DNA of 61,170 nt, the filler included, from Sphacelaria rigidula (lineage: Eukaryota), in the NCBI GenBank assembly GCA_964200075.2. It is 8 parts of 8 records of this genome, joined end to end, with 100 filler letters (N's around TTAATTAATTAA, not from the genome) between each part and the next. Parts side by side here need not be neighbours in the genome. Positions count along the whole stretch, not along the records: positions 1 to 7,560 come from CAXNAA020014335.1; 7 more parts are not named here. One strand, written 5' to 3'. The notes below the pieces were generated by a model that ran no database searches, was not told where the DNA came from, and saw only the letters and a program-made list of their open reading frames with translations. The position numbers and the translations under genes are program-made. This document shows, piece after piece, positions 1 to 54,771 of the stretch (position 1 is its first letter; every line of letters begins with the position of its first letter).

Positions 1-1272
1 CAAAGTGTGCGTTGGCAGCCTTCGAATCGTCGCGGCAGGTTCAGATTTCTACAGAAACACGTTCTAGACGAGCTGTGTCCACTGCTCCCCGGCCCCAGAC
101 CATATTTTTTTTCGAAACTTTATCAACTCTCAGATCGAGTAGTCATCCCCTGTCAACCATTGTGTACGAACATTCCATCAGGTCTACAGCTCTACGGGTC
201 AATGGGCCTCTTATTATGCTAGAAGTCAACGTGTGGTGTAACCATTTCAAAGATGAATGCCACGCCGGTGGAGAGCAAATGTCACTCTCAATCCCATATT
301 CAACTGTCAATTTCACGAAAAAATTGTTAACCGTCGGTTAACATTTCGCATAAATGCAAGTGATACAATTTTGAACCGGTGGTTTCCTCCCGCTCATTGG
401 TGCCGCGATTGCTAAGTACAGCGGTACAAGGGCTCACCATCCCCAGCTATTGGATCACATTCCCACGGAGAGCAATGGGCATAGAATAGTGGAGTGACTC
501 ATTATCAATATCACAATGTCGATTTACGCTTCTCCGATTGCAGGTGTGAACGGATGCTCAGCGCTCTGCTGTCTTCACTTTATATTCGTCGGCGTGGAGT
601 GCGGAGTAATGACGCATTCTTGCGGCACAGGGATTTCGACCGCAAACAGTCACAATGTTGCGCGGATTGGCGTGTCTGACACCGGCTTCGAAACGGCAGC
701 AGGTGTGACGGGTCTTGAGCAGTGAAATGTATACATGTCAGCAAAAACATGACGCGTGCAGTAGGCACTGCTGTACAATATGTACAGTTCAGCGAATCGT
801 AACCCTTGAGCACGCGCATTTCTCCGCCGATACAATGTCGTCCCTCACTGCCAATTATGGGCGACTGGCGTACCAACGCACATACAATATCCGGTGCCAT
901 TCAACATCGCGAAGTGAACGTTCAGGGTTTCTTTCACTGCCTTCGGGTAAAGCCACAGTTTAAGTAGTGCGAATATCTGGTGTCTCCATGGGCAAGTCGG
1001 TGAAATCCGCCGATGATCGGACATGATGACCTCTCCGCGATTCCCGTGGAGATTGGACAAGGCTGACAAATAAGTGCCTGCAATGTTCGATAGCGTGAAA
1101 TTTCTGTTTTCATATGCTGTAGTCTGATTCCTTCGTCATTCCTTGAAGATGTGTACCGACCCAGCTTGCGTCGTCAACTCGCGACGGGTTTCACGTCGCT
1201 GCTTAATGATCCCAGACAAGCTAAACCGCACAGCGCTCGTTCCATGTTTGTGACACAGGCAGCAAACTTTGT

Positions 1273-3138
1273 GTGGACGCCTTCACTACCGCCCTCAGCG
1301 AGGCTTCCTCAGGGGGAAGGTCGTATTTGCCGACAAAACAACTACAGCTGGCCTCACTTCAGCTCTGCATCGCCTGCCGCGGCGTAAGCACGCTATTGGT
1401 GAAAATTGATAGATCTACACCGCGCAGGCTATGGGCCGATCCCGCCCAGAAATCTCCGACTCTGATAGCTGGAAGGATGGGTCGCAATGATGAACTTCGA
1501 GTGCCCTCATTACGGGCACACAGTATTGTATGGATGTTGGGTGCTGACGCGGCAATCATGTCATGCAACACCAATAGTTTGGCCCAAGTGCGAAACTGGC
1601 ACTTTGGCTGTATGTTTGACCATAGTCTGGACTATATTATCTGGCCCCCGCAAGTGAGGAAAATAATGTTCCGGAGCGATGGTAGTTCAATGCCAGCAGG
1701 CTTCAATCAACCCATCACGGAAGTGATCTGGCCTTCTTCGCTGCAGCAGCTGACGTTCGGGACAAATTTCAACCAGCCTATCGAGGGTGTGGAGTGGCCT
1801 GCATCGCTGCAGCAACTGAAGTTTGGAGCTGGCTTCAACCAGCCGATCGAGGATGTAGCGTGGCCTACGTCGCTGCAGCAGCTGACGTTCGATTTTGCTT
1901 TCAACCAGCCTATCGAGGGTGTGGTGTGGCCTGCGTCGCTGCAGCAGCTAATCTTGGAGTATACCTTCAACCAGCCGATCGAGTGTGTGGCGTGGCCTGC
2001 GTCACTGCAACATCTGAGGTTCGGAATGAGGTTTGACCAGCCGATCGAGAGTGTGACGTGGCCTGTGTCGCTACAGAAGCTGACGTTCGGAGGTGCTTTT
2101 AACCAGCTTATCGAACGTGTGGCGTGGCCTGCGTCGCTACAGCAGCTGACGTTCGGAGCTGGCTTCAATCAGCCGGTCGAGGGTGTGACGTGGCCTACGT
2201 CGCTGCAGCAGCTGACGTTCGGGCTGGGGTTTAACCAGCCGATCGAGGGTGTGGCGTGGCCTGCGTCGCTACAGCAGCTGACGCTCGAAAGTGTCTTTAA
2301 CCAGCCGATCGAGGGTGTGGCATGGCCTGCGTCGCTGCAGCATTTGGCGCTTGATTTATTTTTTAACCAGCCGATCGAGGATGTGACGTGGCCTGCGTCA
2401 CTGCAGCAGCTGAGGTTCGGAATTCACTTCAACCAGCCGATCGAGGGTGTGGCGTGGCCTACGTCGCTGCAGCAGCTGATGTTTAGTTCTGCGTTCAACC
2501 AGCCGATGGTGTGTGTGGAGTGGCCTGCATCGCTGCAGCAGCTGGCGTTCGGAGTAATGTTCAACCAGCCTATCGAGGGTGTGGCGTGGCCTGCGTCGCT
2601 GCAGCAGCTAGCGTTTGGATGTTATTTTAACCAGCCTATCGAGGGTGTAGTTTGGCCTGCGTCGCTGCAGCAGCTGACGTTCGGAGCTGACTTCAGCCAG
2701 CCCATCGAGGGTGTGGCGTGGCCTGCGTCGCTACAGCAGCTGACTTTCGGTGATGACTTTAACCAGCCGATCAGGGTTGTGGCGTGGCCCGCGTCGCTGC
2801 AGCAGCTGACGTTCGGGCATCATTTCGACCAGACGATCGAGGGTGTGGCGTGGCCCGCGTCGCTGCGGCAGCTGACGTTCGGAAGTGACTTCAACCAGCC
2901 TGTCGAAGGCATGACGTGGCCTGCGTCGCTACAGCAGCTGACTTTCGGAGATGATTTCAACCAGCCGATCAGGGATGTAGCGTGGCCCGCGTCGCTGCAG
3001 CAGCTGACGTTCGGGCATCACTTCAACCAGCCAATCCAGGATATGTGGTGGCCTCTGTCGCTGCAGCAGCTGACAATTGGATACGAAACAACAAGCCCAT
3101 CAAAGGCGTCGGGTGACCTGTGTCGTTCAAACGGCTGA
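1273..3138 (+). CDS. FNIP-repeat (LRR-like, 22-aa unit) protein, intronless; possibly pseudogenised at both ends
   Basis: The 621-codon ORF contains 21 tandem FNQPIEGVAWPASLQQLTFGxx units. The track start is GTG and the first in-frame ATG is at 1477. An upstream ATG at 1244 is 2 nt out of frame. The stop is reached through a frameshift just after unit 21. Confidence 0.85.
   Translation: MDAFTTALSEASSGGRSYLPTKQLQLASLQLCIACRGVSTLLVKIDRSTPRRLWADPAQKSPTLIAGRMGRNDELRVPSLRAHSIVWMLGADAAIMSCNTNSLAQVRNWHFGCMFDHSLDYIIWPPQVRKIMFRSDGSSMPAGFNQPITEVIWPSSLQQLTFGTNFNQPIEGVEWPASLQQLKFGAGFNQPIEDVAWPTSLQQLTFDFAFNQPIEGVVWPASLQQLILEYTFNQPIECVAWPASLQHLRFGMRFDQPIESVTWPVSLQKLTFGGAFNQLIERVAWPASLQQLTFGAGFNQPVEGVTWPTSLQQLTFGLGFNQPIEGVAWPASLQQLTLESVFNQPIEGVAWPASLQHLALDLFFNQPIEDVTWPASLQQLRFGIHFNQPIEGVAWPTSLQQLMFSSAFNQPMVCVEWPASLQQLAFGVMFNQPIEGVAWPASLQQLAFGCYFNQPIEGVVWPASLQQLTFGADFSQPIEGVAWPASLQQLTFGDDFNQPIRVVAWPASLQQLTFGHHFDQTIEGVAWPASLRQLTFGSDFNQPVEGMTWPASLQQLTFGDDFNQPIRDVAWPASLQQLTFGHHFNQPIQDMWWPLSLQQLTIGYETTSPSKASGDLCRSNG
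1702..3087 (+). repeat. Coding tandem repeat, 21 x 66 nt
   Basis: Unit n starts at 1702+66(n-1). The core 'aaccagccgatcgagggtgtggcgtggcctgcgtcgctgcagcagctgacgttcgg' recurs. Confidence 0.97.
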
Positions 3139-3950
3139 CGTTTGGAAATTGGTTCAACCAGCCCATCGAGGGTTAGCGTGGCCAGCGTCGCTGCAGCAGC
3201 TGACGTTTGGGCAAAAATGAACAAGCGCATCAAAGACGTTGCATCAACACGGGATCTTACAAATTAAGGATGGATCTTTTATTGGGCATGAGAAACCCGG
3301 ATAATTCAAATCTTCGTATCCGCACCAAATCTTCGACATAAAGTTCTATTTCTTCACCTACTCATAGCTTTTGACAACTGCTACACGCCACAGAAACTTG
3401 GATTTCGATCACCGGAATGTTGGGATCATAGGTGAAAAACAATTTTTGCGGAATTCCGGGTGTCCGAACGTACGCCAAAATGGTTTCGAATTATTTTTTC
3501 AACTAGATTCCCAACATTTCGGTGATCGAAATCTAAATTTCTATGGTTTGTAGCAGTTGTCAATAGCTGTCAGTCGGTAAAAAAATGGAAGCATATTTCA
3601 AAGGTATGGTGTGGATATGAAGATTTTTATTCTCCGGGTTTCTCATCCCCAATGAAAGATTCTTTCTCAATTTGTAACATCCCGTGTTCATAGCGTTCAT
3701 CACTGCAGGGGCTCATGTTTGGAAATGGTTCAACACGCTGGTTGAGGGTTTCTCGTGCTCGCACAGCCGCAGCAGTTGCCTCGGGGACATTGATGCAAAC
3801 AGCCGATTGAGGGCATCATGTGGCTTGCCATCTTACATTCTGGGGCTCCTGCTCTGAAAAGCCGATCGAGAGGATGGCGTGGCCCGCATCGCTGCAGGAG
3901 CCGACATTCGGAACGGTTGGAGAAGGCTTCAAGCAGTCGATCGAGGTTTT
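3088..3950 (+). pseudogene. Decayed continuation of the FNIP array (several further units), split by a MITE
   Basis: Out-of-frame units read NKPIKGVG*PVSFKRLTFGNW, FNQPIEG-AWPASLQQLTFGQK, ..KDVA[MITE]*RSSLQGLMFGN and KPIERMAWPASLQEPTFG, with stops and indels. Confidence 0.85.
3246..3688. mobile_element. Fold-back MITE family A (AACACGGGA...TCCCGTGTT), copy 1
   Basis: Inverted arms are ~200 nt. Flanks are catc/cata (4-bp TSD, 1 mismatch). Homologous to 46862-47305 in the opposite orientation. Confidence 0.9.
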
Positions 3951-5633: not shown

Positions 5634-6045
5634 AACACGGGATTTTGCGAGTTGGGGATTTTTTGTGATGGTGAGAAATCCGGAAAATAAAAATATTCGT
5701 ATCCACACCAAATCTTTGGAGTATGGCTCTTTTTCTTCACTTGTTAGTAGCTTTTGACAACTACTACACGCCACAAATATTTGGAATTCGATAACCGAAA
5801 TGTTAGGCAATTTTTGCGATCTGAAGGGGTCATCTCAATTCCCCATAATGTTTTCTTTGCCTAGGACCCCAACCTGCCGGTTAGGAGGATCCAAATTTGT
5901 ATGGCGTATAGTAGTTGCTAATAGCTACCAGTAGGTTCAATAGTGGAAATATTATTCGAAGACTTGGTGTGGATACGAAGGTTTGAAGTCCCCCGGTTCG
6001 CACGCTCAATAAAAAATCCAACCCCAATTTGTAAAATATCGTGTT
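5634..6045. mobile_element. Fold-back MITE family A, copy 2 (more diverged)
   Basis: Starts aacacgggatttt and ends atatcgtgtt. Shares 'tcgtatccacaccaaatctt' and 'ttttgacaactactacacgccac' with copy 1. Confidence 0.85.
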
Positions 6046-7560: not shown

Positions 7561-7660
7561 NNNNNNNNNNNNNNNNNNNNNNNNNNNNNNNNNNNNNNNN
7601 NNNNTTAATTAATTAANNNNNNNNNNNNNNNNNNNNNNNNNNNNNNNNNNNNNNNNNNNN
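7561..7660. other. Artificial contig linker N44-TTAATTAATTAA-N44
   Basis: The identical 100-nt linker also occurs at 15220-15319, 22879-22978, 30538-30637, 38197-38296, 45856-45955 and 53514-53613. Confidence 0.98.
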
Positions 7661-10326: not shown

Positions 10327-12402
10327 AAACGAGGTTGGTCACACGCGGCAGGATTCGCAGGAAAAAAAGGCCAAGTGTTCTAGACTCGGGGGGCAGGAAC
10401 GTTGGAGCCCTCATGGCAAATTCCCGACATAGACGCAGAAACGAAGACCAAAATAAATACAAAACCAGGGGCACGCTGGGCAACAGCGAAAATGAAATAT
10501 CCGCAACATAAAGCAGAGAAACAACACGTGGCAACCGTCCTTGTAAAAGGGAGCGATTATCGTGTGTATGAAGCAAGCAGGGTCAAACGTTTCAGCCAAG
10601 AAGGCGAAACATTCCAGGCAAACATGTCTTAATATAAAACTCAACGTGGTACGCACACAAAAAAGGGGACACGTCATTACCGATCCTGAAGGGGGAGGCA
10701 GTATGCGTGTACGGAGCGGTTGGGCAAGAGCGCAATTATTCAAGACGGGGAGGCGAGGTATATCTAGCGCTCGCTCCTAAAACTCTCGACCGAAAAGACA
10801 GAAAAAAAATACATATTACACAAACGACAAAAGGTGCGTACAACGAAAAAAAAGATGAAGAATTAATAGCTTGGGGCAGCTGTTCCAGTAGGCGAAATTG
10901 TTGTGGATGTACGGCGCGGAGGACGGAAGTTCAAGGTTCCAGACTCAGGGTCAGGAATGGAACGGTCGTCACTTGTACTTTGCCAGGACACTTTCTACGA
11001 TAGCCCCCCCCCAAAAAGTGCATGGTTTTGGGCAAAATATTCACGTAAATCGAAATGGGAAAAGTCGAGCACAATGAGAAGCTGGGAATTCCCACNNNNN
11101 NNNNNTCCACGCCAGGGTTCGTTCTAGCCAATGTCGCCAATATGAGGCGCTTCATGCAGCCTGAACCCGAACACCAGGCGCTGTATGATTATTTTTTCGT
11201 GACACTTTTAACTGGTTTTTTGTGGGGGGGAGGGGGCGTACTCATTTGTTGCTTTCCTTAGTCGTTTGACCATGGACCACGCATCCCTTTCGAAACGGAG
11301 CATGCTGGTTTTTTGGGGGGGCTTTCGTAGAAAGTGTCCCAGATGAACCCAGAATTACCCAAGAAAAGTACCCATTGAACACAAAAAATCGAACACAAAG
11401 CACGAGGTGAAAAGATAAGAAAAGAAGAGAGGAAAAACAAAAAAAACAAAGACAAAAACGAGTAAAACAAATTGACGCAAAGGCAATGAAAACCGAAACA
11501 AAAAATCAGGTCCAGAGCAACAAAAAATAAAACACCAGATTCCAAATACAAAGCACAACATCAAACGCTAAAAGTACGGGACTAATCAGTACGAAAAAGA
11601 AATGGAGGGCGGGAGGGGGGGGGGACACATGGTTGTCCAACGACGCTACGGTGCAAGACAAGTGACTCTAACGCGGTACACTACGCAAGATGACTGAGGA
11701 AGCAGACTCGGATGCATCATGAGCCATCTGCATCCCAAGCGGTGTTCGTGTTCCGTAGAACGGCTGTTTCGAGTTCGCCATGGTCGTGTCGTTGGAGGCA
11801 CCAGGATCCCCTCCCAGCGGTCGGCTCCTCGGTGTAGTAAACATCATCCAAGCGAATCTTAAGGTGGCTCGGGTCATCAAGGAAACAGATAAAGTAGGAG
11901 TGGTCAGACGCAGGATCGACCAAGTGAATTTTACCCATCCACCACAGTGAATCCAAGGCCTTATACCAAAATTACGCCCCTTTCGGCAATCGTTTTCCGT
12001 GAAAACACTGCATGTAATGTGAACGCGAAAGAAGGCTATATAGCCTGTCACAACAAACCGCGCTGAGTGTTCACGTGCCAGTTCCCGAGCGGCAGCTCCC
12101 TTGCGCATCGACCGATATCTCTTATTCAACAGGCGGTGTTGGACGGTATCTCCTACCCAGTGCAGCAATATTTCCCGACGAAAATGACGAAAACCAACTT
12201 CACGCTCCCATGTGTCACGCATGATACCCTTCCAATGTGTTTTGATACATTACCGCTATCCTATGTCCACGACCGCGAACCAGTTGATGGCCCGAAATCC
12301 TATCTACCTCGACGCGTTCCAGGGGTGCGTCCGCATCCTCGACCGTCATTTGATACGGCGGAGTTTCGATCGAATACTTGGTCAACACATTCTGGCTAAG
12401 CC

Positions 12403-13926
12403 CTAGCGGCAGTTGTTTGGGCATGTCGGAGGAGTCGTGAGGGGGATACAAGGTTTGCATCGTAGCATCGAGACACGATTTTTCGGTTTCGAACCAGGTT
12501 CATCCATGGGAAAATCTAAATACAAAAGTTTCGCTCCCACCGGACTCTTGTCGGGTGCGGTAGCGCTTGGACCAACAGCTAAAATTTCCCAAGGACCAGT
12601 CCAATGCAAGGATAGTTTCGCCTTCAACACTTTGTCCAAAGATGATGATTTCGAGCTAGCCCCTTGATTGATGGTCTTCACATCGTTATACACCCATGCC
12701 CATTGATCTACCTTCCACACTGGGCGGTTATGTACCACATCCTCCAACATCGCGTTCGCCCTTGCCACCTTGGCCAAATTGATATGGTTCTGTTCTCGTA
12801 CCACTTCATATGCAAGACGAAGACGATTGCTAACCGACAAATGATACTCTGCAACATCACGATCCAGACTCTGATGTCCACCTGTATTTTTGCGTTCGAA
12901 TACCGTTAAAGGTAACCTAGGCATGCGTCCAATATGAATTTCATTCGGCGACAATCCCGTAGCGGCATTGACTGAATTGTTGTAGTTCATCTGGACAAGG
13001 GGCAGGTGCAGATCCCAGTCCATCTGTCTCTCATTTGCTACAGCAGCAAGCATCAGTGCCATCGTATGGTTCACTCGTTCTGTTCCACCATTGGTGGAAG
13101 GGTGATGTGAACTAGTAAACATACGATGGGCACCCAAAAGGTCAGTGACGGCGGCTGAACGTTTGCCTGAAAAATGCGGGCCGTTGTCAGACAGTAAGCG
13201 TTTGGGCACACCCCACAGTGGGATGTACATGTAGACAAGAATGTTGGCGGTACCTTCCGCGGTATAACTACTGGGGGGGACGGCGTGCATCACCGCATGT
13301 TGACTAAATCTATCCGTAAACAACAAAATATACTTATTTCCACTATCCGTCAGGGGCAGAGGATCAAAATAGTCTCACGAAACTACTTCACCAGGTTCGT
13401 TTGGGAGTGGCATGGAAACAATCGGCCAACGAACTGTTTGACGAGAAGGTTTTCGCGCCTGACACAAAAGACAACGCCTCACCCACCAAAGACAACACTG
13501 ATCCATACAAATCCACCAATTAAAACGTTCCAACATCTGGGAGGTCCTAATGGCGCCTAAATGAGTCGATGCCTGTGAATAGCATTCGTGTAGAACCCAT
13601 GGGCGCAGGAAAATCGGGACGTCGATGCGGATGGGTTCATCACCTAGCAAGTGGGCATGTCGACCTGCAGGCTTCCTCCGGGAGAGGTCTGCTGTGGGCC
13701 GGTGAACTAACAGAACTGTACCATCGTCATCCGTATGTAGAGCAACGTTTCTTGAAAGTTCAGTAACTTCATCCTGTGTGGGCGCTTTGACATTCCCGAC
13801 TGGCAAAAGGAATTCGGTTTCGGAGAATGGACATGGGCAACCTTTAGATAGATAATGGATAGCTGATTTACAAGCAGGTTCTGCCTGTTGTTCCCGGATC
13901 CAATCGGCGTGGGAGAAGAGAGTCAA
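12403..13926 (-). pseudogene. Gypsy integrase (zinc finger plus DDE core)
   Basis: ORFs 13375-13926 and 12403-13326 share a frame, broken by one TGA. Motifs include SDNG, HPSTNGGTER and YNNSVNAATGLSP. Confidence 0.93.
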
Positions 13927-14442
13927 ACGTTCCTTGAATACACCATCTGTTGAAGCGTCTACTTCGTGTTGGGCCGGTTCGGGGCGGGGTTGGCACGAGG
14001 CGGTGATTTCGGAATCAAGGGTGAGCCTACTAGTTGGTATACTCTCAGACGGAACGTTAACGTCTACTCCTGCGTCGATCAGCGGGATCCTCTGGGGGCC
14101 TTGCGTCGCGGAGGCTGCGGGGGCGCACGGAAACTATCGGGGACCGGGGTGGGGGCAGGGAGGGGAAGGTCAGGACCAGAAACGGCTATTTTGGTGGCCG
14201 TTTCGGCGGTTCGCCGTCCACGAGTCCTACTCAGAATCAAGTCTCGAACTTGAACTGGTAAGACGGAGTCAGCAAAGGACGGTTCTACACCTGCTGCGAA
14301 AACCATGCGCTGGCCAGTTGCACGAAAATGATCATAGCCAACAGTTTTCGTAGGCAGTCCATTCCAAACTGAGTTACAATGATTGAGGTTGCAAGCTGCC
14401 TAGAAGTGATGCGTGGGCTGTGGTCGTCAGCCCATCCATGCC

Positions 14443-15170
14443 TCAAGTCGGCGTTTCTCTCAGTGAAAGTGGTGTGTAGAGACCTCTATGTCCATTCCTG
14501 CATATGAAATATACAATGTCTTCGGAGGGATCGGTGATACGTCCTATGGAGGGTCCATAGATAGGTCGAGCTGGTGTGGGCAAGCGTGACAGAAAGTCGG
14601 CGTTTGCATTCTGGGAACCTGTGCGGTACTTCAGTTGGAAGTTGTAGGACGACAGGATTTCGAACCAGCGTTGGACCCTAGCGTTGTGTTCCGCCATTTT
14701 GGCAAGGCTTTCCAAAGGCTCATGGTCGGTAAAAATTACAAACGGGATGTCATACAAATACTGACGCAGACGTCGCACGCCCCAAACAACTGCGCCGGCC
14801 TCTTGTTCCATGACAGACCAATTCTGTTCATTCAGAAAAGTGGTGCGACTCAGATAGACAATGGGACGAACAGTAGAATCGACTTGATCCTGTTCTAATG
14901 TGCAGCCAAACCCAATTTTGGAATAATCTGTGTGGAGCCGGAAAGCGCGGGAACCCTGCTACGCGGTCGACCAGTCGGGGAAGACGAGAATCGGCTGGCG
15001 CGAAAGGGCGTCAAGAAGACGGCGGACAATTTTTTCCATTTCCAATGTGAACACAAATTTTACCCCTTTTTTGAGGAGGGTGGTGAGGGGTTTTAGCGTT
15101 TGGGCAAGGTTTGGCAAGTACTGTCTGTAATAGCTTAGACCTCCCAACAAGGAACGCAATTGAGAAATAA
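14443..15170 (-). pseudogene. Gypsy reverse transcriptase C-terminus and RNase H
   Basis: ORFs 14959-15159 and 14443-14811 share a frame, broken by one TAG at 14959-14961. Confidence 0.92.
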
Positions 15171-15452
15171 CAGCAAATTGTGCGTATTGAGGTTTAACTC
15201 TGAATTGAGGCTCAAGTGGNNNNNNNNNNNNNNNNNNNNNNNNNNNNNNNNNNNNNNNNNNNNTTAATTAATTAANNNNNNNNNNNNNNNNNNNNNNNNN
15301 NNNNNNNNNNNNNNNNNNNGGTTGATCGTAGAGCACTCTCGTATCTCCTCCCGAGTTGTGATAACCCATGACCTCCTGACATCGGGACATGGAAAATTGA
15401 GCACATGCTGGTATAATAACATCGATGATGCCAGTTTCTCGAGCGATTGGTA

Positions 15453-15682
15453 ATCGCCGAGCGGGGACACACAAAAGATTGGGGCGAGAAGCTTCCTCTC
15501 TGTCGTTGCTTCTCTCTCTGGTGATATCGTCATCGACACGCGTGTACACCGCATTCGTTAGGCGCACGTAGCCACAGCTGTTTAACTGCTGCGGACATTC
15601 GGGGGGAAATATGGCTTCGCTCGGTCGTAAGTGTTTCGCGTCACCCCTGCCAAAAAGAAATTCCACTTGAACCTCATTTTTG
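15453..15682 (+). repeat. Interspersed repeat family H, copy 2
   Basis: Homologous to 7661-7890. Confidence 0.8.
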
Positions 15683-15866
15683 AGATGGACCCCATTTTCC
15701 AGGATCCACTGTTATATGGTGTTTCGTAGGATGGTTCGGCAAGAGGCCATCAACACCCAGCCTCACTCGGCTTTTCATTGCTGATCTGGGGCCCAGTATT
15801 ATTACGGTAAAGACTAATTGAACACATCTTCGAGGTCTAACACATCCTGTGTACATCCAGCCGCTA

Positions 15867-20111: not shown

Positions 20112-20144
20112 CGTGCGTGTGTGTGTGTGTGCGTGCGTGTGTGC

Positions 20145-20191
<47 letters not shown>

Positions 20192-20276
20192 CGTGTGTGT
20201 GTGCGTGCGTGTGTGTGTGCGTGTGCGTGTGTGAGTGTGCGTGCGTGCGTGCGTGCGTGCGTATGTATGTGTGTGT
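20112..20276. repeat. Compound (GT)n/(GTGC)n microsatellite
   Basis: Directly visible. Confidence 0.97.
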
Positions 20277-21179: not shown

Positions 21180-24100
21180 TGAAGCGATCCATTTTGAGAT
21201 GCAACACATACCCTCTATCCTTGCACGGCTCAACACGAACACGTGAGTATGTATATACGGTCAACTTGAATGATGTCATAGAAGTTAGTTAGTGATATTT
21301 ATAGTTTTGTGGTATCTTTATATGTATTTCAATATATAGGGGTATTATACTACGACCACAGGCCCGAAGATATGGCAGCAACGAAGGCAAGCTATGACTC
21401 ATGTTTTTCACTAGCCCACATACCGCCAAAGGTAACGGTAATGTGCTATTCAGCAGTTGACGTTTTGCACTGATAATACTGTGTGCCACAAACCCCTTGT
21501 TCTCTATATAGCTGCTACGTTAATGGGGCTTGCCACGCCTGCAATATTCGCACTGTGCCGACCGTAGTAGTCCATCAACGATACAAGACGGTCTTCTCGA
21601 AAATGAGGTTCAACACTGCGCTGAGGTCGAACCTGCGCTTACACTTCCGCCATTCCCACAAGTAACTTGGGTTAGGAAAGCACTTTCGGCTAGTTAGTGT
21701 ATTTGTGTTGAATGTCAAGCAGGTGTGGCCGGGTGATCTCAATTCCGTGTGCAAGGGTGGCAACTACGATGCCAGCGGAGGAGCAATGGCGGAGAGGAAG
21801 CTCCACGCCCGGGTCCTTTACGTATCTTCGTTCTTCAGCGATTCCCAATCGGTCAGGAGATCGATATCAGGTCACCACCACACACACCGCATTTTTCCAG
21901 CCCTTCCGTCGGCACAACAAGAACGGCAGGCGGTTAGTTGTACAGCCCAAAAAACAAGATGCGGCTTGGCTTGCCGTAATTTGGCTGATGTATCCGTGTC
22001 TTGTCTGTCGCACTGACCAGTGCGAAGATCGATTCCTTTCTGCCTCTCTTCCTGAGCAAGACGTGTCTCTGTGCGTCACAGAGCACGTGCGAGCAATGAC
22101 GGTTGCGACAAGACTCAATGGGTGTTATCATAATAGGTAGCATGTATCACTTGCTGCAAGGGTAACAGTAGAGGTTGAGTTTGGGACCGTGTAGTGTAGA
22201 ACCCACCGCCATAGAGACTTTCTTGGCCTGCCTAGTGAAACAAGATACCTCTGGCGGCGGCCGAGCTGCTGCTGGCGTGGCCCACATGGGGGCTGGCATA
22301 CTGTGAGCTGTGAGCTACGGGGCGCTTCTCTTGGCGTATAGTCAATGCGCACTGTAGGCAAGGGGGTGTTGTCTTCAATATTTTTCATCGTCCTTTACTC
22401 TGCCGAGGCCACCACACAGCTTTTGCCTGAGGTGAGATATGGCTCCACCACGAGCAAGGACATGCTCGTAACATATGGACTACTCGCATTTTCATTTGTG
22501 TCCCATGCCCTCGAGTGCTGACCAAACAAGTCCTGCCTGAGATAGCTTGTGTTTGGTTCCGAGGAACCAAGCTGCAGTCAGCCGAGATGGGTGGCCATAT
22601 TGGTATCTATTATCGTTCTTCTGTTAGTCAGCGTCACACAAGCCAGGGGAAGGACGTGGGGGTACGTCACACGTGCCGAAAAGACACGACTCTGCTGACA
22701 ACAAAAACTACTGCCGGACAAGTATCGTGACATACATGTGTGTGATGTTTAGATGGCCGTGTTGTCGCGACAGGTTCGTTCGTCGATGGTTCCGTCCTGC
22801 GCTCTCCAACAGGGTTTCATGTCCAGAGCAGTAGTCCATTTTCCCCCTTAGGGTGCATGTTGTTGTTTCCCTCTCTGCNNNNNNNNNNNNNNNNNNNNNN
22901 NNNNNNNNNNNNNNNNNNNNNNTTAATTAATTAANNNNNNNNNNNNNNNNNNNNNNNNNNNNNNNNNNNNNNNNNNNNAACACACCCCCAGCCCCCACAG
23001 CAACACCGGAAAAAGAAGAGGGGGCAGGGGGGGGGGGGGGGGGGCGTATGATGTGAAACCACGGGAAGCTTATTTGCCCCCTACATCACGCGCCCTCCCG
23101 TCATCTCTTAAATAAACACTACAAGCAACAACACAATCTACCAATCCATCACGGAGGTCTTCGGCTAGTCTATATCCAAACCTTGCAGCAAGCGACAATC
23201 GCTCCCATGAATAAACCCCACGACCTACTCCTCCAATTTTGAGCCTCTGGAGACGGCAAAATGACAGAGTCAAGAGACGTGGGGGGGGGGGGGGGACATC
23301 CGTTGTGGCGGGAGTACCCGAGCACTACTTTGCGACACACATCACCCGTACTGTAAAGCTCACGGAGATCTCGCTTTGCGGCAAACAAACTCCACCGTTG
23401 GTATGTGCCACCACTGCACGCCTTTTTGCGACACAGATACAACGATGTTGCGGGCCAGCGAAGCGAGGGGCGGGGGCCGGGGGGCGTGGGGGGAAGAGGT
23501 GCCTTTTTGACCACTTTGCAACCCACCCCCAACCTTGTCGGGCACCCTAACGTACTCTATTTCAAACATCAAGCAAGAAAAACATGGCGCCGGTGTGCCC
23601 CTCATGAGCACACTTAAAGCAAAAACGCGAAAAAAAAAATAGGGTTCTACTTCGAAATCCCGCAGTAGCTCCCCTCCACCCTGACGTACTCTATTCCCAA
23701 CCCCCGGCAAGAGAAACAGAGCGCCCATGTGTGCCCGTTATGGGCACACTTGACAGAGCAAAAACGCAAGTCAAGAAAAAAAGGCATATTCCGAAACCGC
23801 GATAGCTCTCGCTCTAGGTGAAAGGGAAATGAAGTGCACACAACCGCATTCCTCCCGTATTTCGATTGCGGTCTCCGTGCCTCCTCCAATAAAACACCTT
23901 CCTCTTGAAATCTGATCGCAGCAGAATCGAATGATTCCTGCATCCCCTTCCCACCCGTGGCGGGAACAATCAAGATGCTTGAATGATTCAACACTGCTCG
24001 CACATCCAAGAACGACACGAGCCACAAAAAAGCGCCCTATCTGTTTTTTCTTGCATGGTTTACACGATTTTTTCCCCCAACCGAAACGATCGTTGGAGAT

Positions 24101-30377: not shown

Positions 30378-33300
30378 AGTACAGACCGAACGATCTGGTC
30401 TCTTATATTTCCATATTTCACACACTCTAGCGTGTTGTCTCCCCCCCCCCCCCCCCCCCCCCTTTCTTCCCTTCGTCCCCCCCCCCTCCCTTCCCCCCCC
30501 CCCTACCACCGCCCCCCCCCCCCCCCCCCCCCCCCCCNNNNNNNNNNNNNNNNNNNNNNNNNNNNNNNNNNNNNNNNNNNNTTAATTAATTAANNNNNNN
30601 NNNNNNNNNNNNNNNNNNNNNNNNNNNNNNNNNNNNNTGTGTGATGTATGGAAGAAATGTTTTGAGCGCCGAAATGTTGGAGGTATCTCTATTAGGAGTA
30701 GGAATGGTGCTCCGTCTCGAAAGGGATGCGTGGTCAATGGTCAAACGGCCAAGGCAAGCAAGAAACAAGTACTCCCTCCCCGCCCCTCCCCCTTCCCCCG
30801 CACTCTGATTTTCGACCTGGAATGATTGATGGCTACAGGCGTGGTGCCATACCCTGTGGGATCGACGAGAAACGACACCCATTATCAAGTGCAGACGAGT
30901 CTGGACCACGATCAATACTCGAGCGTGGCGGCGGAGGGTGTTCATGAAACGACGAGAGCAGGCGTGGCGAAGGGGGGTGCCGAGGGGGACCGTGGCGGGT
31001 ACTGTCAGGTATAGGAATGCTCCGAAGGCATCAACAAGGTTGTGCAGTGGTACCGATATTATCGACACATCCAGCCGGTACAGCGTGGTATACACTATTT
31101 TCTCGTACCGGTAATTTTCCACCTATATCGCCGTTCTACCGTTACTGGCTATGAAGGACCAATGCTGCCCCTGGTGAAGAGTTTGGAGTCAGGTTTTCAG
31201 CACCCTCAGTAGACTCGATAAAACATTGAACGAGAAATACACCGATCTTCAACTGTCGGCCATGACCATAGCTACCGCTGCAAGAACTGTGGCTCGATTT
31301 TACGCCCGTCGCAGCGCACCACCTGACGATCGACATGTTTTTTTCAACCGCTGGCAAAACAGATGCTGAAATCCCACAAACGTGATCGTCATTTTCCGTC
31401 ATTGAATCCAAAACGCGATCGCACGAAACTCACGCCGTACCGCGCGACATATGCGACCACTTTTCACTCGAGTAGGGTATTCAAGCAGCTATCGTTCAAG
31501 GCTACGTTCGTGCTCTTACCCTCGCAGAATGATGTGAGTTTTGCAGCTTGGAGTTTATGTATGATGTTGAAACTCGATGCGCCGGTGCGCATGCTTATTA
31601 ACAACGGCTTACCGCACAAGTTGAGTCATCTCATTACGTGTATGAGGAGATGTGATGAAGTCCGTACCGGGTGTTTGAGTGTAGAAAATGAGCCTAAAAC
31701 GTTTACATAGAGTAACATTATAACCACAGCGGTTTCGCTGTACATGACTTTTCCTGGCGAGTCCAAGCTCCCTGGTTCTCATACTACACCTTCCGTGAAC
31801 ATTTATCGAACTTTACCCATGATGTTTACTTGACGGTAAAAATAACTATATCCGCCAAATCTTTCGCAATTGAACGCCGGTGATTCTATGCCTATATTTG
31901 CTGACTTTGTGAGGTAGGAAGTGATATAGCACGAAAGTAGCAGTCTTCTGCAACATTGCGGATGTGTTCCGCGCAAGGGGGGTATCGGCACCAAAGCAGC
32001 GACAAATTCCGCCCTCCCTCGTCCCTCGCATAGTACATTTCAATGCTTTTTACAACCGATTATACTGATTGCGTGCTGTAGTTTGCTCTGAAAAAGTGAG
32101 AGTCACCTATGCACCGTAGAGCTCGAAAACCCGCGATATCCGTCATTATCTACGCGATAAGCATTAAAAGCGTAACCAAAGATACGTAAACGACCAGCGC
32201 AACGCTGGTACAATCCATATACCGAACAAAGATCGGGCTTTCGCCCACGCTTGGCACCCAAGGGTGCAACCACAGGTATTTCCGCGATTTATCAGCTGCC
32301 CCCATTTACCGACATGTTCTATTTTATGGGTAGATCTTTCTGATCCAGAACCATGTACACCAATCAATGGAAGTTGATATACCTCTCTATTGGAGAAGTG
32401 TGGGCTTGAGAAGCCGCTCCATTTTCTCGCAAGGCCGGAGCGTTCTTGGTTCGAAAATTGTGAGGGAAGCGTATCTTGCAAGAAAAGCGGGGGTAAGATT
32501 GCTGCTTTGACCTTCCGTCTGAACGACTGAGCGCGTACCCCTTTTGTTTTGTATCGTTGGGCCTTGGACGGTGACGTCCTCCTGAACCTCCACACTCTGC
32601 AATGTTTCGTACTCCGCACACTACCTCGCCTACCTCGCGCAAGTCGGAGTCGGAGAAAGCGTCGATGCAGCCACTTTGTGAATATGTGTGTATCCAGGGC
32701 AAAAACGCGATGGGGGAATCGGCTGGCTGGTCCTGTTTTACAAGCAAAGTTTTGAGTTGTGAGTATTCTTGTGTCGGCCGATCCTTCACATGTTGGAGTC
32801 ACACACATAGTACATCCCAACATCCATACATGATACCAACACGGAACGAGTCACAGCAGACCAGTGTTCGTTGCCAATTTCATAGGTTTCTAGTATTCGG
32901 TGCTTGATGCCTATCGGTGGTTTGTAGCGACACTGCAGTAGATATCTACTTTGTGACTCCGGCCGGGTTCGTGATGGATTAAAATATATGCAACAGGCGA
33001 TGAGCCGACTGATGAACCAACCAATCAGGGATTATTCAACGTCATGCCGATCGCATCTCGACGCTCGCTGTGCACCCCTACCTACCGCTGGGTGAATGCC
33101 GATATTAAGATGGGGCGATTTCACAAGTGTATGCAGTATGTCGTACGATATATTCACGGGCTGTCTTTCTGGCAGGTTTTTTTATTACCGCGGGTTAATG
33201 TTTACTTCGCGTATTTTGCCGCTGAGGAATACCTATTGTATCGATTTCCTCTTTGCCCTCATTCAATGTGCTCGAAATTTGCTCAGCGAGGGGTTTCCGT

Positions 33301-38196: not shown

Positions 38197-38369
38197 NNNN
38201 NNNNNNNNNNNNNNNNNNNNNNNNNNNNNNNNNNNNNNNNTTAATTAATTAANNNNNNNNNNNNNNNNNNNNNNNNNNNNNNNNNNNNNNNNNNNNTGGG
38301 CAATCAGGCCGAAGAAATCGTGGATTTGGTGATTTGTAGTCGTGATGATTCGTCCTAACCGTGATTTAA

Positions 38370-45855: not shown

Positions 45856-46861
45856 NNNNNNNNNNNNNNNNNNNNNNNNNNNNNNNNNNNNNNNNNNNNT
45901 TAATTAATTAANNNNNNNNNNNNNNNNNNNNNNNNNNNNNNNNNNNNNNNNNNNNGGAGTGCCGCGCGGGGGTCTCCCGCCCCCCCCCCCCCCCCCCGTC
46001 TCGAAAGGGATGCGTGGTCAATGATCAAACGGCTCAAGCAAGCAACAAATGAGTACGCCCCCCCCTCCCTTCCCAATCCGCGAGAACGGGATATGCAGGA
46101 TAAGGTGTAACGTGTGTCGGCTCTTAAGTGCTACTCACGTCGCGTTGTAACCCTAGTAGCTGTACACAGTGTACAGAACTTTGTACAGTACATGAATGTG
46201 GGAATGTGAGGAAGATTGTGGCGTGTCTGGTCTATTATCCCTGTATGTGGTTGTGATGGCTGCCTCCTTGTGCTTGGTTTCGAAAATAGGGTGGCGCGGT
46301 GAAGTTTCGAACTGGGCGATAAAGTAGCTGAATGCGTGGGCTATCAGCAGGGTGCGTGTGGCTTCAACACGATTTGGCGGCATTTTGTTGGATAGGCGGA
46401 GGTGATTTGAGAGCTAAATATTTGGAGGGTTAGGTCTTGCATGTGCCAAGTGCACATGCTTCATGATGATTTTTTCGTTCGTTCTTTCTACAACATGTTT
46501 TTCGGTTGATATAATGGTGAACTTTGTTGTTGCGGTAGCGTGCGTAAGCCATCGCACTACAGATTCAGTAATCGCCGGATGTCGCTCGTGAGTGAATCAG
46601 CTTTGTGACTGGCGCGCATCCACACCTGTCTCACCCGATCGACTACAGTGTTTTTGTAGTTCAAAATGTTGCATGTGGGATATATACTGTAGTGCCTCCA
46701 TCACTTGTGTACACCGTTGACGTTTTTTCGGGGGGAGGTTGTCTGGCATATTCGCCGCTATGGTGGTTTATTTCTGTTCTCGTGTGGTTTGGGCTGATGT
46801 GAGCATCGCAACTCTACATACTGTGATCACGGGTCTGGGTGCGTAGATTAATGACGATTGA

Positions 46862-47305
46862 AACACGGGATCTTACACATTGGGCATGGATCTTTTATTG
46901 AGGATAAGAAACCCGAAGGATTAAAATCTTCAAATCCAGACCAAATCTTCGAAATATGGTTCCATTTCTTCACCTACTGATAACTGTTGACAACTGCTAC
47001 ACGCCATAGAAATTTGGACTTCGATCACCGAAATGTTGGGGTCCTAGGTGAAGAACCAATTTCGCAACAATTTTGGCGTCCGTTCGGACACCCGGAATTC
47101 CCCTAAATTGTTTTTCCACCTAGGACCCCAACATTTCCGTGATCGAAATCCAAATTTCCATGGCGTGTAGCAGTTGTCAATAGCCATCAGTAGGTGAAGA
47201 AATGGAACCATATTTCGAAGATTTGGTGTGGATACGAAGATTTTAATCCTTCGGCTTTCTCATCCCCAATAAAAGATCCATCCTCAATTCGTAAAATCCC
47301 GTGTT
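46862..47305. mobile_element. Fold-back MITE family A, copy 3 (best preserved)
   Basis: ~200-nt near-identical inverted arms. Perfect 4-bp TSD ttga at 46858-46861 and 47306-47309. Confidence 0.93.
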
Positions 47306-53159: not shown

Positions 53160-53513
53160 CAGGCACCGTAGGTAAGGTACCGTACCGAGCGTACCCCCGG
53201 TATTTACCGGGGTATACCATACCGTGGTATGCGTAGGTATCGTAGGTATGACATTTTAAAATACCGGATTGGGCCGGTACGGTAGGTATTGAAATCTCGA
53301 AATACCGTGGTATCGTAGGTATCGTAGGTATGAGTTTTGAAAATACCGGATTGAGCGGGTACGGTAGGTATTGAAATCTCGAAATACCGTGGTATCGTAG
53401 GTATCGTAAGTATGAGTTTTGAAAATACCGGATTGAGCCGGTACGGTAGGTATTGAAATCTCGAAATACCGTGGTATCGTAGGTGTTGTGGGTATGACGT
53501 TGGAAAATACTGG
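53160..53513. repeat. 82-bp tandem repeat (at least 3.5 units), probably the subterminal array of a TIR element; cut by the contig end
   Basis: The anchor accggatt/actgg recurs at 53263, 53345, 53427 and 53509. Rich in GGTA/TACC. Confidence 0.85.
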
Positions 53514-54771
53514 NNNNNNNNNNNNNNNNNNNNNNNNNNNNNNNNNNNNNNNNNNNNTTAATTAATTAANNNNNNNNNNNNNNNNNNNNNNNNNNNNNNN
53601 NNNNNNNNNNNNNTGACGGCTTGCCTTACCCCTATTCTCAATCGTATCGAAGATTCTCAATCTCACGAAAACATTGTTATTAACACTAGCATATTGTGGC
53701 TAACGACTCCAGATTTGAAAGGGTTTCGCAACGTCACTCGTGGTAACAGCATCATTGACATGTGCCATTCCAACAGGTCAGTGGTCCATTCATTACCGAA
53801 ATACACAAAAAATAGCGCCTTCCGATGTAGAGCCCACAGTCAACCAAATACTAGATACCAGTACTTTTTCTTGGCACTCAATTTGGCGAAAATGTTGTTG
53901 GAATCAAAAGCGCCACACAACATCCTCAACCGAAGCATATTATTTCGACGTCCGTTTTTGAAAAACGATGAGCAGGAAATGATCCTCTATACATCAGAAT
54001 TGTCGTCGGAGTCCAGTAGAATATTATCTTGACTTTTCACAGCGTAGTATTCCACGGACTCTGGAGCCCTGGCAGTACATTTGTGTTCCCCTCCAAGCCC
54101 CCCGTTCGTCCCGATAATTTGCGGCGTTAAGCGCTCACCAAGCACATACCTCATCGCACTACCATCCCAAATATTTTTCAGTGGTGTGCTGGAGTTCCCA
54201 TGAATATAAGCGCGTGTCTGTCTGACGCCCATTCTGCGGTCGTCAGGCCTGACCCTTGCCAACTTTCCATTTTTTCGGATCGTTTCATCCCTGGTGTTTG
54301 ACCCCCGCGCGGTAACAACACGGAACCCCGTCACGCAAACGCTCGGTCTGGGCTAATCCCCACCTTGTGGGGATATTGTCTAAAGAACGCACGTCTCACC
54401 CACCTTCAGCATACACGGACTACCGACTACGCGATGGATATACATTACAGCTTTTAGGGTTGTGATAGGTTACTGCAGTAAGCATCGTGTGCCTCTCCAG
54501 ATTCGAATTTGTCATTTTCATTTCGATCGATTTTCTGTTCTGGTTGTGTGCAAGTGTGCTGTATGCAGGAGCACACTCGCAAATTATGTGCCTCTTGAAA
54601 TATATCCATGCAAGCATGACGAATGAGGGTGCGTGAGAATTTGTTGTCGAGTCCGCTTTAACACCCATCCATCATTTGGGTCCTTATCTAGCCAATTTGA
54701 ATGAGTCTCTTGATCGTCCATGTGACTTCAAATCCGCGAATGACGCAGTCACGGTTAATGGTGTGTTATTC

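Follow-up and report, generated by a model that had tools for sequence, protein, structure and literature searches.

What kind of protein is encoded by an algal gene built of tandem repeats that vary most at the same two adjacent residues in every unit? The question is raised by a stretch of 61,170 nucleotides (filler included; hereafter the window, meaning the whole stretch at its full length) from Sphacelaria rigidula, assembly GCA_964200075.2, in which an array of 21 FNIP/FGxxFN repeats lies near the start. An earlier note on the same DNA had seen in the array a modular recognition receptor reprogrammed by repeat shuffling, comparable to transcription activator-like (TAL) effectors or to lamprey variable lymphocyte receptors (VLRs). 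Our analysis favours another answer: this is likely a nuclear brown-algal gene of the FNIP/FGxxFN leucine-rich repeat (LRR) family, of the Crov539-like "WP" subclass, coding for a predicted ring-shaped binder whose rim diversified early.

A family-wide variable dipeptide on a predicted LRR ring

Slicing the window from 1702 reproduced the 21 in-frame units of 66 nt that the earlier note had described, the last of them ending at 3087. Numbering each unit from the F of FN places the variable dipeptide at codons 21-22, the last two of the unit. In order, the pairs read TN, AG, FA, YT, MR, GA, AG, LG, SV, LF, IH, SA, VM, CY, AD, DD, HH, SD, DD, HH and YE, which makes 18 distinct pairs among the 21 units, as counted before. 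Entropy is 3.56 and 3.33 bits at codons 21 and 22, and 2.1 bits or less at all others in the array; 13 residue types occur at the first of the two codons and 12 at the second, with 7 or fewer elsewhere. Codon 7 follows with 7 types, then codons 9 and 18 with 6 each and codon 12 with 5. The x of the LxF motif, also reported as variable, reads T in 13 units, A in three, R in two, and K, I and M in one each. The residues of the FGxxFN motif are present as F1 (21/21), N2 (18/21), F19 (17/21) and G20 (16/21). W10 and P11 (both 21/21) and P4 (19/21) match the Crov539 consensus, which has Pro at its position 13 and Trp-Pro at its positions 19-20. Pair chemistry changes along the array: small, hydrophobic or aromatic residues occupy the dipeptides of units 1-14, and acidic residues or His those of the last seven.

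A single array spanning 1729-3211 was called by Tandem Repeats Finder, with a period of 66, 22.5 copies, 76% matches and a score of 1427, and a degenerate unit pattern matched the window 23 times against 0.05 expected, with 21 matches in the array and the others at 3179 and 3880. The variation at codons 7, 9 and 12 and the decayed units past 3087 had been missed in the earlier note. We also observed an antisense open reading frame (ORF) of 153 aa running through the array (1707-2168, minus strand); it too repeats every 22 codons and most likely arises merely from the repeat structure. The count of 18 distinct pairs was discarded as informative on its own, since by our reckoning six neutral nucleotides would rarely be identical at the silent divergence of the scaffold.

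Family membership is clear. The Pfam family FNIP (PF05725) matched in 12 stretches with an E-value of 2.8e-95 and 312.7 bits, where the cut-off is 21. Among 8000 candidates scored, 457 proteins of similar length matched at E<=0.001; those with a named source come from brown algae, Symbiodiniaceae and one dictyostelid. The brown-algal relatives belong to Ectocarpus, Scytosiphon, Pylaiella, Ascophyllum, Hapterophycus, Laminaria and Sphacelaria, and the closest named ones are proteins of S. rigidula itself. By sequence, the gene product also matched two solved proteins of Cafeteria roenbergensis virus (CroV), Crov588 (6nyr_A, E 2.5e-115) and Crov539 (7zal, E 4e-67). Across 1,214 units (566 + 648) taken from 120 listed homologues, positions 21-22 were again the most variable (4.0 bits), followed by positions 6, 7, 9, 12, 16 and 18 (3.0-3.5 bits). 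In uniformity of the scaffold the window gene ranked 12th of 109 proteins, and all the more uniform ones have highly diverse dipeptides.

The structures of Crov588 and Crov539 (PDB 6NYR and 7ZAL) were described by Huyton et al. 2022 (PMC9525666). According to that paper, variability within the repeat peaks at the two residues that separate FG from FN, which are placed at the concave face's edge, residue 5 is the sole variable position of the concave face itself, and the family may recognise many ligands, with an explicit likening to lamprey VLRs; the paper also counts 104 such sequences, mostly with WP, in Ectocarpus (printed "Endocarpus"). Ye et al. 2015 (PMC4421812), in the part available, list 121 FNIP proteins in Saccharina japonica, and the accessible text of a preprint (10.64898/2026.04.27.720984) places FNIP among the largest brown-algal orthogroups. 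Judged from the homologous sequences, the variable-dipeptide pattern is a hallmark of the family rather than a peculiarity of this locus, and both the idea of a binding rim and the comparison with VLRs were already in print.

The assignment to an LRR-type solenoid, made in the earlier note from the repeat alone, was supported by the solved relatives, by an AlphaFold2 (AF2) model and by Foldseek. The model (625 residues) had a predicted local distance difference test (pLDDT) of 86.9 and a predicted TM-score (pTM) of 0.81, and Q16-F19 of each unit forms a strand, so that strands recur every 22 residues; its top Foldseek match was the circular Crov588 (6nyr_A, E 2.7e-30, TMq 0.67, 574 columns, 39% identity). 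The predicted fold is a nearly closed ring solenoid like that of Crov588, in which each repeat would contribute a short Q-L-T-F strand to the concave face and the two residues after FG would sit on the rim. The window protein shares with Crov539 and Crov588 the 22-residue repeat, the Crov539-class consensus LxxLxFGxxFNQPIExVxWPxx, the ranking of variability along that consensus (positions 8-9 first, position 5 next) and, over part of the array, acidic runs at positions 8-9. It differs at positions 2-3, where it carries a Gln-Gln ladder and Crov588 and Crov539 have His/Tyr or Thr. It also differs in being a host nuclear gene with an intron and an N-terminal domain of ~145 residues that is not described for the CroV proteins, and in being 3'-truncated and devoid of a C-terminal cap. 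Relative to the brown-algal FNIP families, with which it shares both repeat family and N-terminal domain, the window gene has a more uniform scaffold than most, lacks the C-terminal cap that many carry, and with its 21 regular units exceeds those of the listed proteins from brown algae that we inspected.

The earlier note had further expected the variable residues to cluster on one face. By the placement in the solved Crov588 and Crov539, position 5 lies on the concave face and positions 8-9 at its edge; codons 7 and 9 lie off the concave strand. The product may be an intracellular binding protein that presents a constant Gln/Thr-lined concave surface and a unit-specific rim, through which partners would be bound. 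An intracellular location is suggested because the translation of the spliced gene shows no hydrophobic N-terminal stretch. As modelled, a binder is a reasonable reading, in agreement with the structural literature.

Probable selection on the dipeptide within the array

Pairwise counting over the 21 units gave a proportion of synonymous differences (pS) of 0.339 in the scaffold (dS 0.45), with an omega (dN/dS) of 0.32. At the dipeptide the proportion of non-synonymous differences (pN) was 0.685 (dN 1.83), near saturation, and the ratio of dipeptide dN to scaffold dS was about 4 (4.1). The earlier note's description of the units as highly similar even at synonymous sites is an overstatement: scaffold pS is 0.34, and the fourfold sites, although well below saturation, are far from the near-identity of TAL effector repeats. 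Codons 7, 9 and 18 gave ratios of 1.05-1.6. Diversity at the 11 fourfold degenerate sites of the scaffold ranged from 0.18 to 0.61 (mean 0.31). All four non-degenerate sites of the dipeptide (0.64-0.78) lay above all 11 of them (exact Mann-Whitney p 0.0007), and none of 5000 neutral star-tree simulations reached the observed mean. At codon 21 the third base is T in 15 of the 21 units, and bases 1 and 2 are saturated. Strong codon bias is an unlikely cause, because third-position composition in the N-terminal part of the gene is even.

Parsimony on the scaffold tree counted 22.8 and 21 non-synonymous changes at the two dipeptide codons where 7.7 and 8.1 were expected (ratios of 2.95 and 2.6), an overall 2.6-3.0 that is biased upward by the tree having been built on the scaffold itself. 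The earlier note had staked its proposal on a dN/dS above 1 at the dipeptide. Taken relative to scaffold dS, the ratio exceeds 1 within the array by either method, at ~4 in the pairwise count and 2.6-3.0 on the tree. Our literature search found no paper on positive selection in FNIP repeats, and such an analysis may exist elsewhere. While the array was forming, divergence at the rim dipeptides outran that at silent sites, so selection favoured differing dipeptides.

Dipeptides apparently mostly kept, with no sign of shuffling

The reprogrammable receptor of the earlier note would use the dipeptide as a code, rewritten by germline or somatic shuffling of repeats. The array has features that such a receptor would share: a fairly uniform scaffold with a single variable dipeptide in each repeat, within-array dN above dS at that dipeptide, and a recent duplication of units 17 and 20. 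Both of these units read HH and they are the only near-duplicates, with 3 differences in 60 scaffold nucleotides where every other pair has at least 6, so at least one unit was duplicated recently. The wider arrangement is nevertheless against shuffling. Units differ at ~10 of 60 scaffold nucleotides (~17% divergence at the DNA level), and the average scaffold distance between units shows no trend with their spacing, staying at 10.2-11.0 differences over lags 1 to 10. A block duplication of the form DD-HH-x-DD-HH was considered and dropped, the DD pair (units 16 and 19) differing at 8 of 60 positions, which is not distinctive.

Close homologues point the same way. The closest among the shorter proteins is P0121 of S. 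rigidula, with 81% identity over 223 residues. Five of its 6 dipeptide residues agree with the window: TN, FA and one of AG, which it reads AD. An apparent lack of the window's unit 4 in P0121 was rejected, as gapless BLAST shows P0121 ending inside its own fourth unit. We then compared, at the protein level only, 15 independent pairs of homologues that are 75-95% identical (103 aligned units). The mismatch rate was 0.286 at the dipeptide, 0.257 at the other variable positions, 0.171 outside the units and 0.148 in the scaffold, and individual pairs spanned 0 to 1.0, with register shifts possibly inflating the high values. About 71% of the dipeptide residues were unchanged, and the dipeptide changed no faster than the other variable surface positions (Fisher p 0.41).

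The known systems named in the earlier note differ from the window gene in construction. TAL effectors consist of 33-35-residue two-helix repeats, with the repeat-variable diresidue at positions 12-13, and bind DNA. They too combine, in each tandem repeat, a conserved scaffold with a single hypervariable dipeptide, whereas the window repeat is a 22-residue LRR strand and loop, with units that have diverged by ~17%; in repeat length and fold the gene is an LRR protein and not a TAL effector. Lamprey VLRs, which are assembled somatically from an incomplete germline gene flanked by donor LRR cassettes, share with it an LRR scaffold and variation on or near the concave face, but the window array is continuous in one exon, and the window holds no incomplete germline gene with flanking cassettes; outside the array and its decayed tail, the unit pattern has no further match in the 61 kb. 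Brown-algal LRR-ROCO genes and exon-per-repeat immune candidates carry a ROC-COR GTPase domain and one LRR per exon. The window ORF shows only FNIP (with LRR_5 below threshold), and all its 21 units lie in a single exon.

One further observation could be read in favour of reprogramming: in the available part of PMC10945749, an FNIP gene is the part that differs between near-identical virophage genomes. Taking both sides together, we regard a reprogrammable receptor of this kind as highly improbable. The proposed shuffling is not supported, in view of the flat distances, the single near-duplicate pair and the dipeptides kept in close homologues, and neither is the TAL effector and VLR analogy taken as a mechanism; we saw no sign of shuffling or of fast change. 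Limited evidence suggests that the dipeptides have mostly been kept since the array formed, as a fixed, unit-specific surface and not a continually rewritten code. The simplest reading combines either a burst of change at array formation or selection against homogenisation with a fixed unit-specific rim kept afterwards; the rim dipeptides would have been diversified by selection as the array formed and then mostly retained.

Gene structure and transcription

The features of the gene are collected in Table 1. The stop-to-stop frame of the array spans 1225-3138, and no ATG in this frame precedes the conserved N-terminal domain. An upstream exon supplies a start: with a splice from 702 to 1259 the frame stays open through that exon, with an ATG at 609, and the N-terminus of P0182, an S. 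rigidula protein that is 60% identical, aligns by eye with the translation of the upstream exon. The resulting coding sequence of ~1.97 kb (609-702 plus 1259-3138) has no stops or frameshifts, and several occur in the ~130 nt just downstream.

Table 1. Features of the FNIP gene and of its decayed 3' flank (window coordinates)
Feature	Position	Strand	Basis or remark
Upstream coding exon	543..702	+	open frame throughout; likely start ATG 609-611
Intron, 556 nt, GT..AG	703..1258	+	spliced contig; GT at 703-704, AG at 1257-1258
Long main exon	1259..3138	+	N-terminal domain, then 21 regular 22-residue repeats
Family-specific N-terminal domain: helical hairpin with invariant C..CxxCR, then irregular cap repeats	1259..1701	+	tblastn, alignment
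21 intact 66-nt (22-residue) FGxxFN/FNIP repeats	1702..3087	+	unit slicing, Pfam, Tandem Repeats Finder
Decayed repeat units 22-24, with frameshifts and a TGA at the Trp codon of a unit	3088..3242	+	slicing, three-frame translation
449-bp foldback (MITE-like) element inside a decayed unit	3243..3691	.	inverted arms
More decayed FNIP units over three frames	3692..3950	+	translation; pattern at 3880-3908 with 2 mismatches

Contigs from public sequencing runs, among them X1, X2, X4 and X6, were placed on window positions 1-1767. X1 is DNA-like, and the RNA nature of X2, X4 and X6 is a guess. One X4 contig (depth 48.6, shorter side 35 letters) joins 699 to 1256 with GT..AG ends, and contigs from X2, X4 and X6 cover 542-678, 1466-1580 and 1635-1756 without differences. 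The missing X2 and X6 cover over 709-1239 was not used as evidence by itself. The locus is apparently transcribed, which the spliced contig supports and does not prove. A loose contig end before 542 suggests a further 5' exon beyond the window.

Two positions near the start of the main exon differ between contigs and assembly: at 1266 and 1273 the window reads A and G, and contigs read C at both. The entire X1 depth at the two positions is C; at 1273, X2 and X6 show only C, and X4 contains the two variants. With C at 1273, CVDAF of the window becomes CLDAF, which is the consensus of the family. The differences reflect either an allele or a close paralogue.

The gene structure bears on a possible viral origin, according to which the array would belong to a recently integrated segment of a giant virus (a nucleocytoplasmic large DNA virus, or a phaeovirus-like one) and not to a host gene. 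The closest solved relatives are indeed CroV proteins; brown-algal FNIP genes are linked to giant viruses in the parts available of PMC4421812 and PMC2373305, and the accessible text of the preprint cited above (10.64898/2026.04.27.720984) terms FNIP a putative virus-derived domain. A recent viral insert is nonetheless disfavoured, because the gene has an intron, of the spliceosomal GT..AG type, and no viral hallmark domain was seen in the 39 of 48 window ORFs that were scanned. The window holds instead a Ty3/gypsy-type element and copies of a miniature inverted-repeat transposable element (MITE), and 275 of 365 X1 contigs are 90-95% alike, indicating a dispersed family of host paralogues. We consider a recent viral insertion extremely improbable, and keep to a nuclear gene of the alga.

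A conserved N-terminal domain

The N-termini of 10 homologues matched the window by tblastn from 1249-1273 onward. In an alignment of 14 sequences, C4, L28, S32, C36, C39, R40, R80 and P82 are invariant, and 291 representative clusters matched the domain at E<=0.001 (phmmer); the motif is present in 59 of 120 homologues, among the matches listed. Within 1261-1560 (plus strand), three invariant cysteines stand out, one near the start of the domain and the other two in a CxxC, with Arg next after it, where the second helix ends, and this arrangement hints at a possible metal or redox site.

This domain could be taken for the Skp1-docking part of an F-box-type substrate receptor of a Skp1-Cullin-F-box (SCF) ubiquitin ligase, a role proposed for the F-box plus FNIP proteins of giant viruses. 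An N-terminal module followed by an FNIP array is also the architecture of those viral proteins, one homologue from a dinoflagellate bears the source name "F-box and FNIP repeat-containing protein", F-box fusions are reported for Megavirus baoshan in the available part of PMC9525666, and the domain opens with two helices in its AF2 model (pLDDT 63.4). Profile and structure searches neither favour this reading nor exclude it. No relevant Pfam family, F-box included, appeared at E<=5 in the 18 sequences scanned; the profile of the 14 aligned sequences had no PDB sequence relative at E<=10; an atlas search with the domain gave no usable match; and a structural search (VIA) of the low-confidence model returned generic helical hairpins alone, with Z of 6.8 or less. 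We consider an F-box receptor very unlikely, and treat the domain as a family-specific module in front of the putative binding ring.

A truncated array with a decayed 3' end

Repeats do not stop where the reading frame does. A frameshift opens unit 22, the stop codon of the ORF lies at 3136-3138, and the unit pattern still matches at 3179-3207. The foldback element that interrupts the decayed units has arms of 197 nt (3243-3439 and 3495-3691) that are 81% complementary, and further copies lie elsewhere in the window, at 46862-47305 (85%) and 5634-6045 (~69%). A tblastn search with the C-termini of 10 homologues found no C-terminal cap, with nothing matching beyond ~3093. Because broken repeats continue past unit 21 and no cap lies downstream, the present gene is a 21-unit truncation of a longer ancestral array. 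The original 3' units would have been broken by frameshifts, stops and the foldback transposon, leaving no C-terminal cap.

These same features could mark a decaying pseudogene, whose ORF does nothing and whose dipeptides are the historical imprint of the family. Frameshifts and stops from unit 22 on, the 449-bp foldback in the tail of the array and the missing cap all fit decay, as do the surroundings, where the 39 of 48 ORFs scanned gave retroelement pieces as the only other notable Pfam matches. Against it stand the ~1.97 kb of intact coding sequence, the scaffold omega of 0.32 and the spliced contig, which carries the window's own letters at 1266 and 1273. Moreover, two homologues, P0079 and P0030, likewise end soon after their last repeat without a long cap. 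On this evidence we think a pseudogene unlikely, and prefer a truncated gene that still encodes its binder.

Other features of the window

We scanned 39 of the 48 window ORFs of 130 aa or more against Pfam. Besides FNIP, the clear matches were pieces of a Ty3/gypsy-type element at 11668-15711 (minus strand, several frames), with RT_RNaseH at E 3.8e-31 and Integrase_H2C2 at E 3e-09; rve (integrase core) stayed below the cut-off, and these matches fall at 12.4-15.0 kb. One weak, sub-threshold match to HHH_3 was also seen.

Upstream of the gene, window positions 1-354 reach a summed X1 contig depth of ~1,000-22,000, compared with a few hundred further on, and probably belong to a high-copy repeat. 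Paired runs of 44 N, 12 bases apart, recur every 7,659 bases (7561-7660, 15220-15319, 22879-22978, 30538-30637, 38197-38296, 45856-45955 and 53514-53613; a further N run lies at 11096-11105) and look like marks of masking or scaffolding, not biology. The window also contains an 82-nt tandem repeat at 53219-53510 (3.5 copies, 92% matches), a C-rich run of 97 nt beside an N block (30441-30537) and a (GT)n microsatellite of ~160 nt (20113-20276).

Discussion

Several points weigh against a functional binder with a rim diversified by selection. The pS of the dipeptide codons themselves is 0.66, near saturation, so that the ratio inside those codons is only ~1.15. The pairwise ratio compares repeats within one gene, where gene conversion could lower the dS of the scaffold, and the tree count carries the upward bias noted above. 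Codons 7 and 9, with ratios of 1.2-1.6, vary off the concave face. Evidence for retention is limited to six residues of P0121 and to protein-only pairs with possible register shifts. The support for transcription depends on three runs whose type was guessed, and with a decayed 3' end and no cap the product may be unstable or non-functional. Finally, we know of no brown-algal FNIP protein with a known partner or function.

Brown algae, dictyostelids, dinoflagellates and giant viruses all have very large families of FNIP/FGxxFN proteins. To what is known of them, the locus adds a rim dipeptide that, inside one array, diverged about three to four times faster than the silent sites of the scaffold and yet is mostly kept in close homologues, a conserved N-terminal domain with no Pfam match that occurs in at least 291 protein clusters, and the example of a copy that has been truncated to 21 units and is apparently expressed. 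It is conceivable, and in our view quite unlikely, that the brown-algal FNIP genes with the C..CxxCR hairpin domain make up a repertoire of intracellular receptors, each rim dipeptide acting as one recognition letter, with specificities arising in diversifying bursts at array expansion and then frozen. If true, this would be a brown-algal counterpart of the nucleotide-binding leucine-rich repeat (NLR) and LRR immune receptors, whose targets might be the giant viruses in which this repeat also occurs. Our results leave unchanged what has been published, namely a constant LRR ring with a variable rim for binding, and provide a concrete brown-algal gene on which that picture can be tested.

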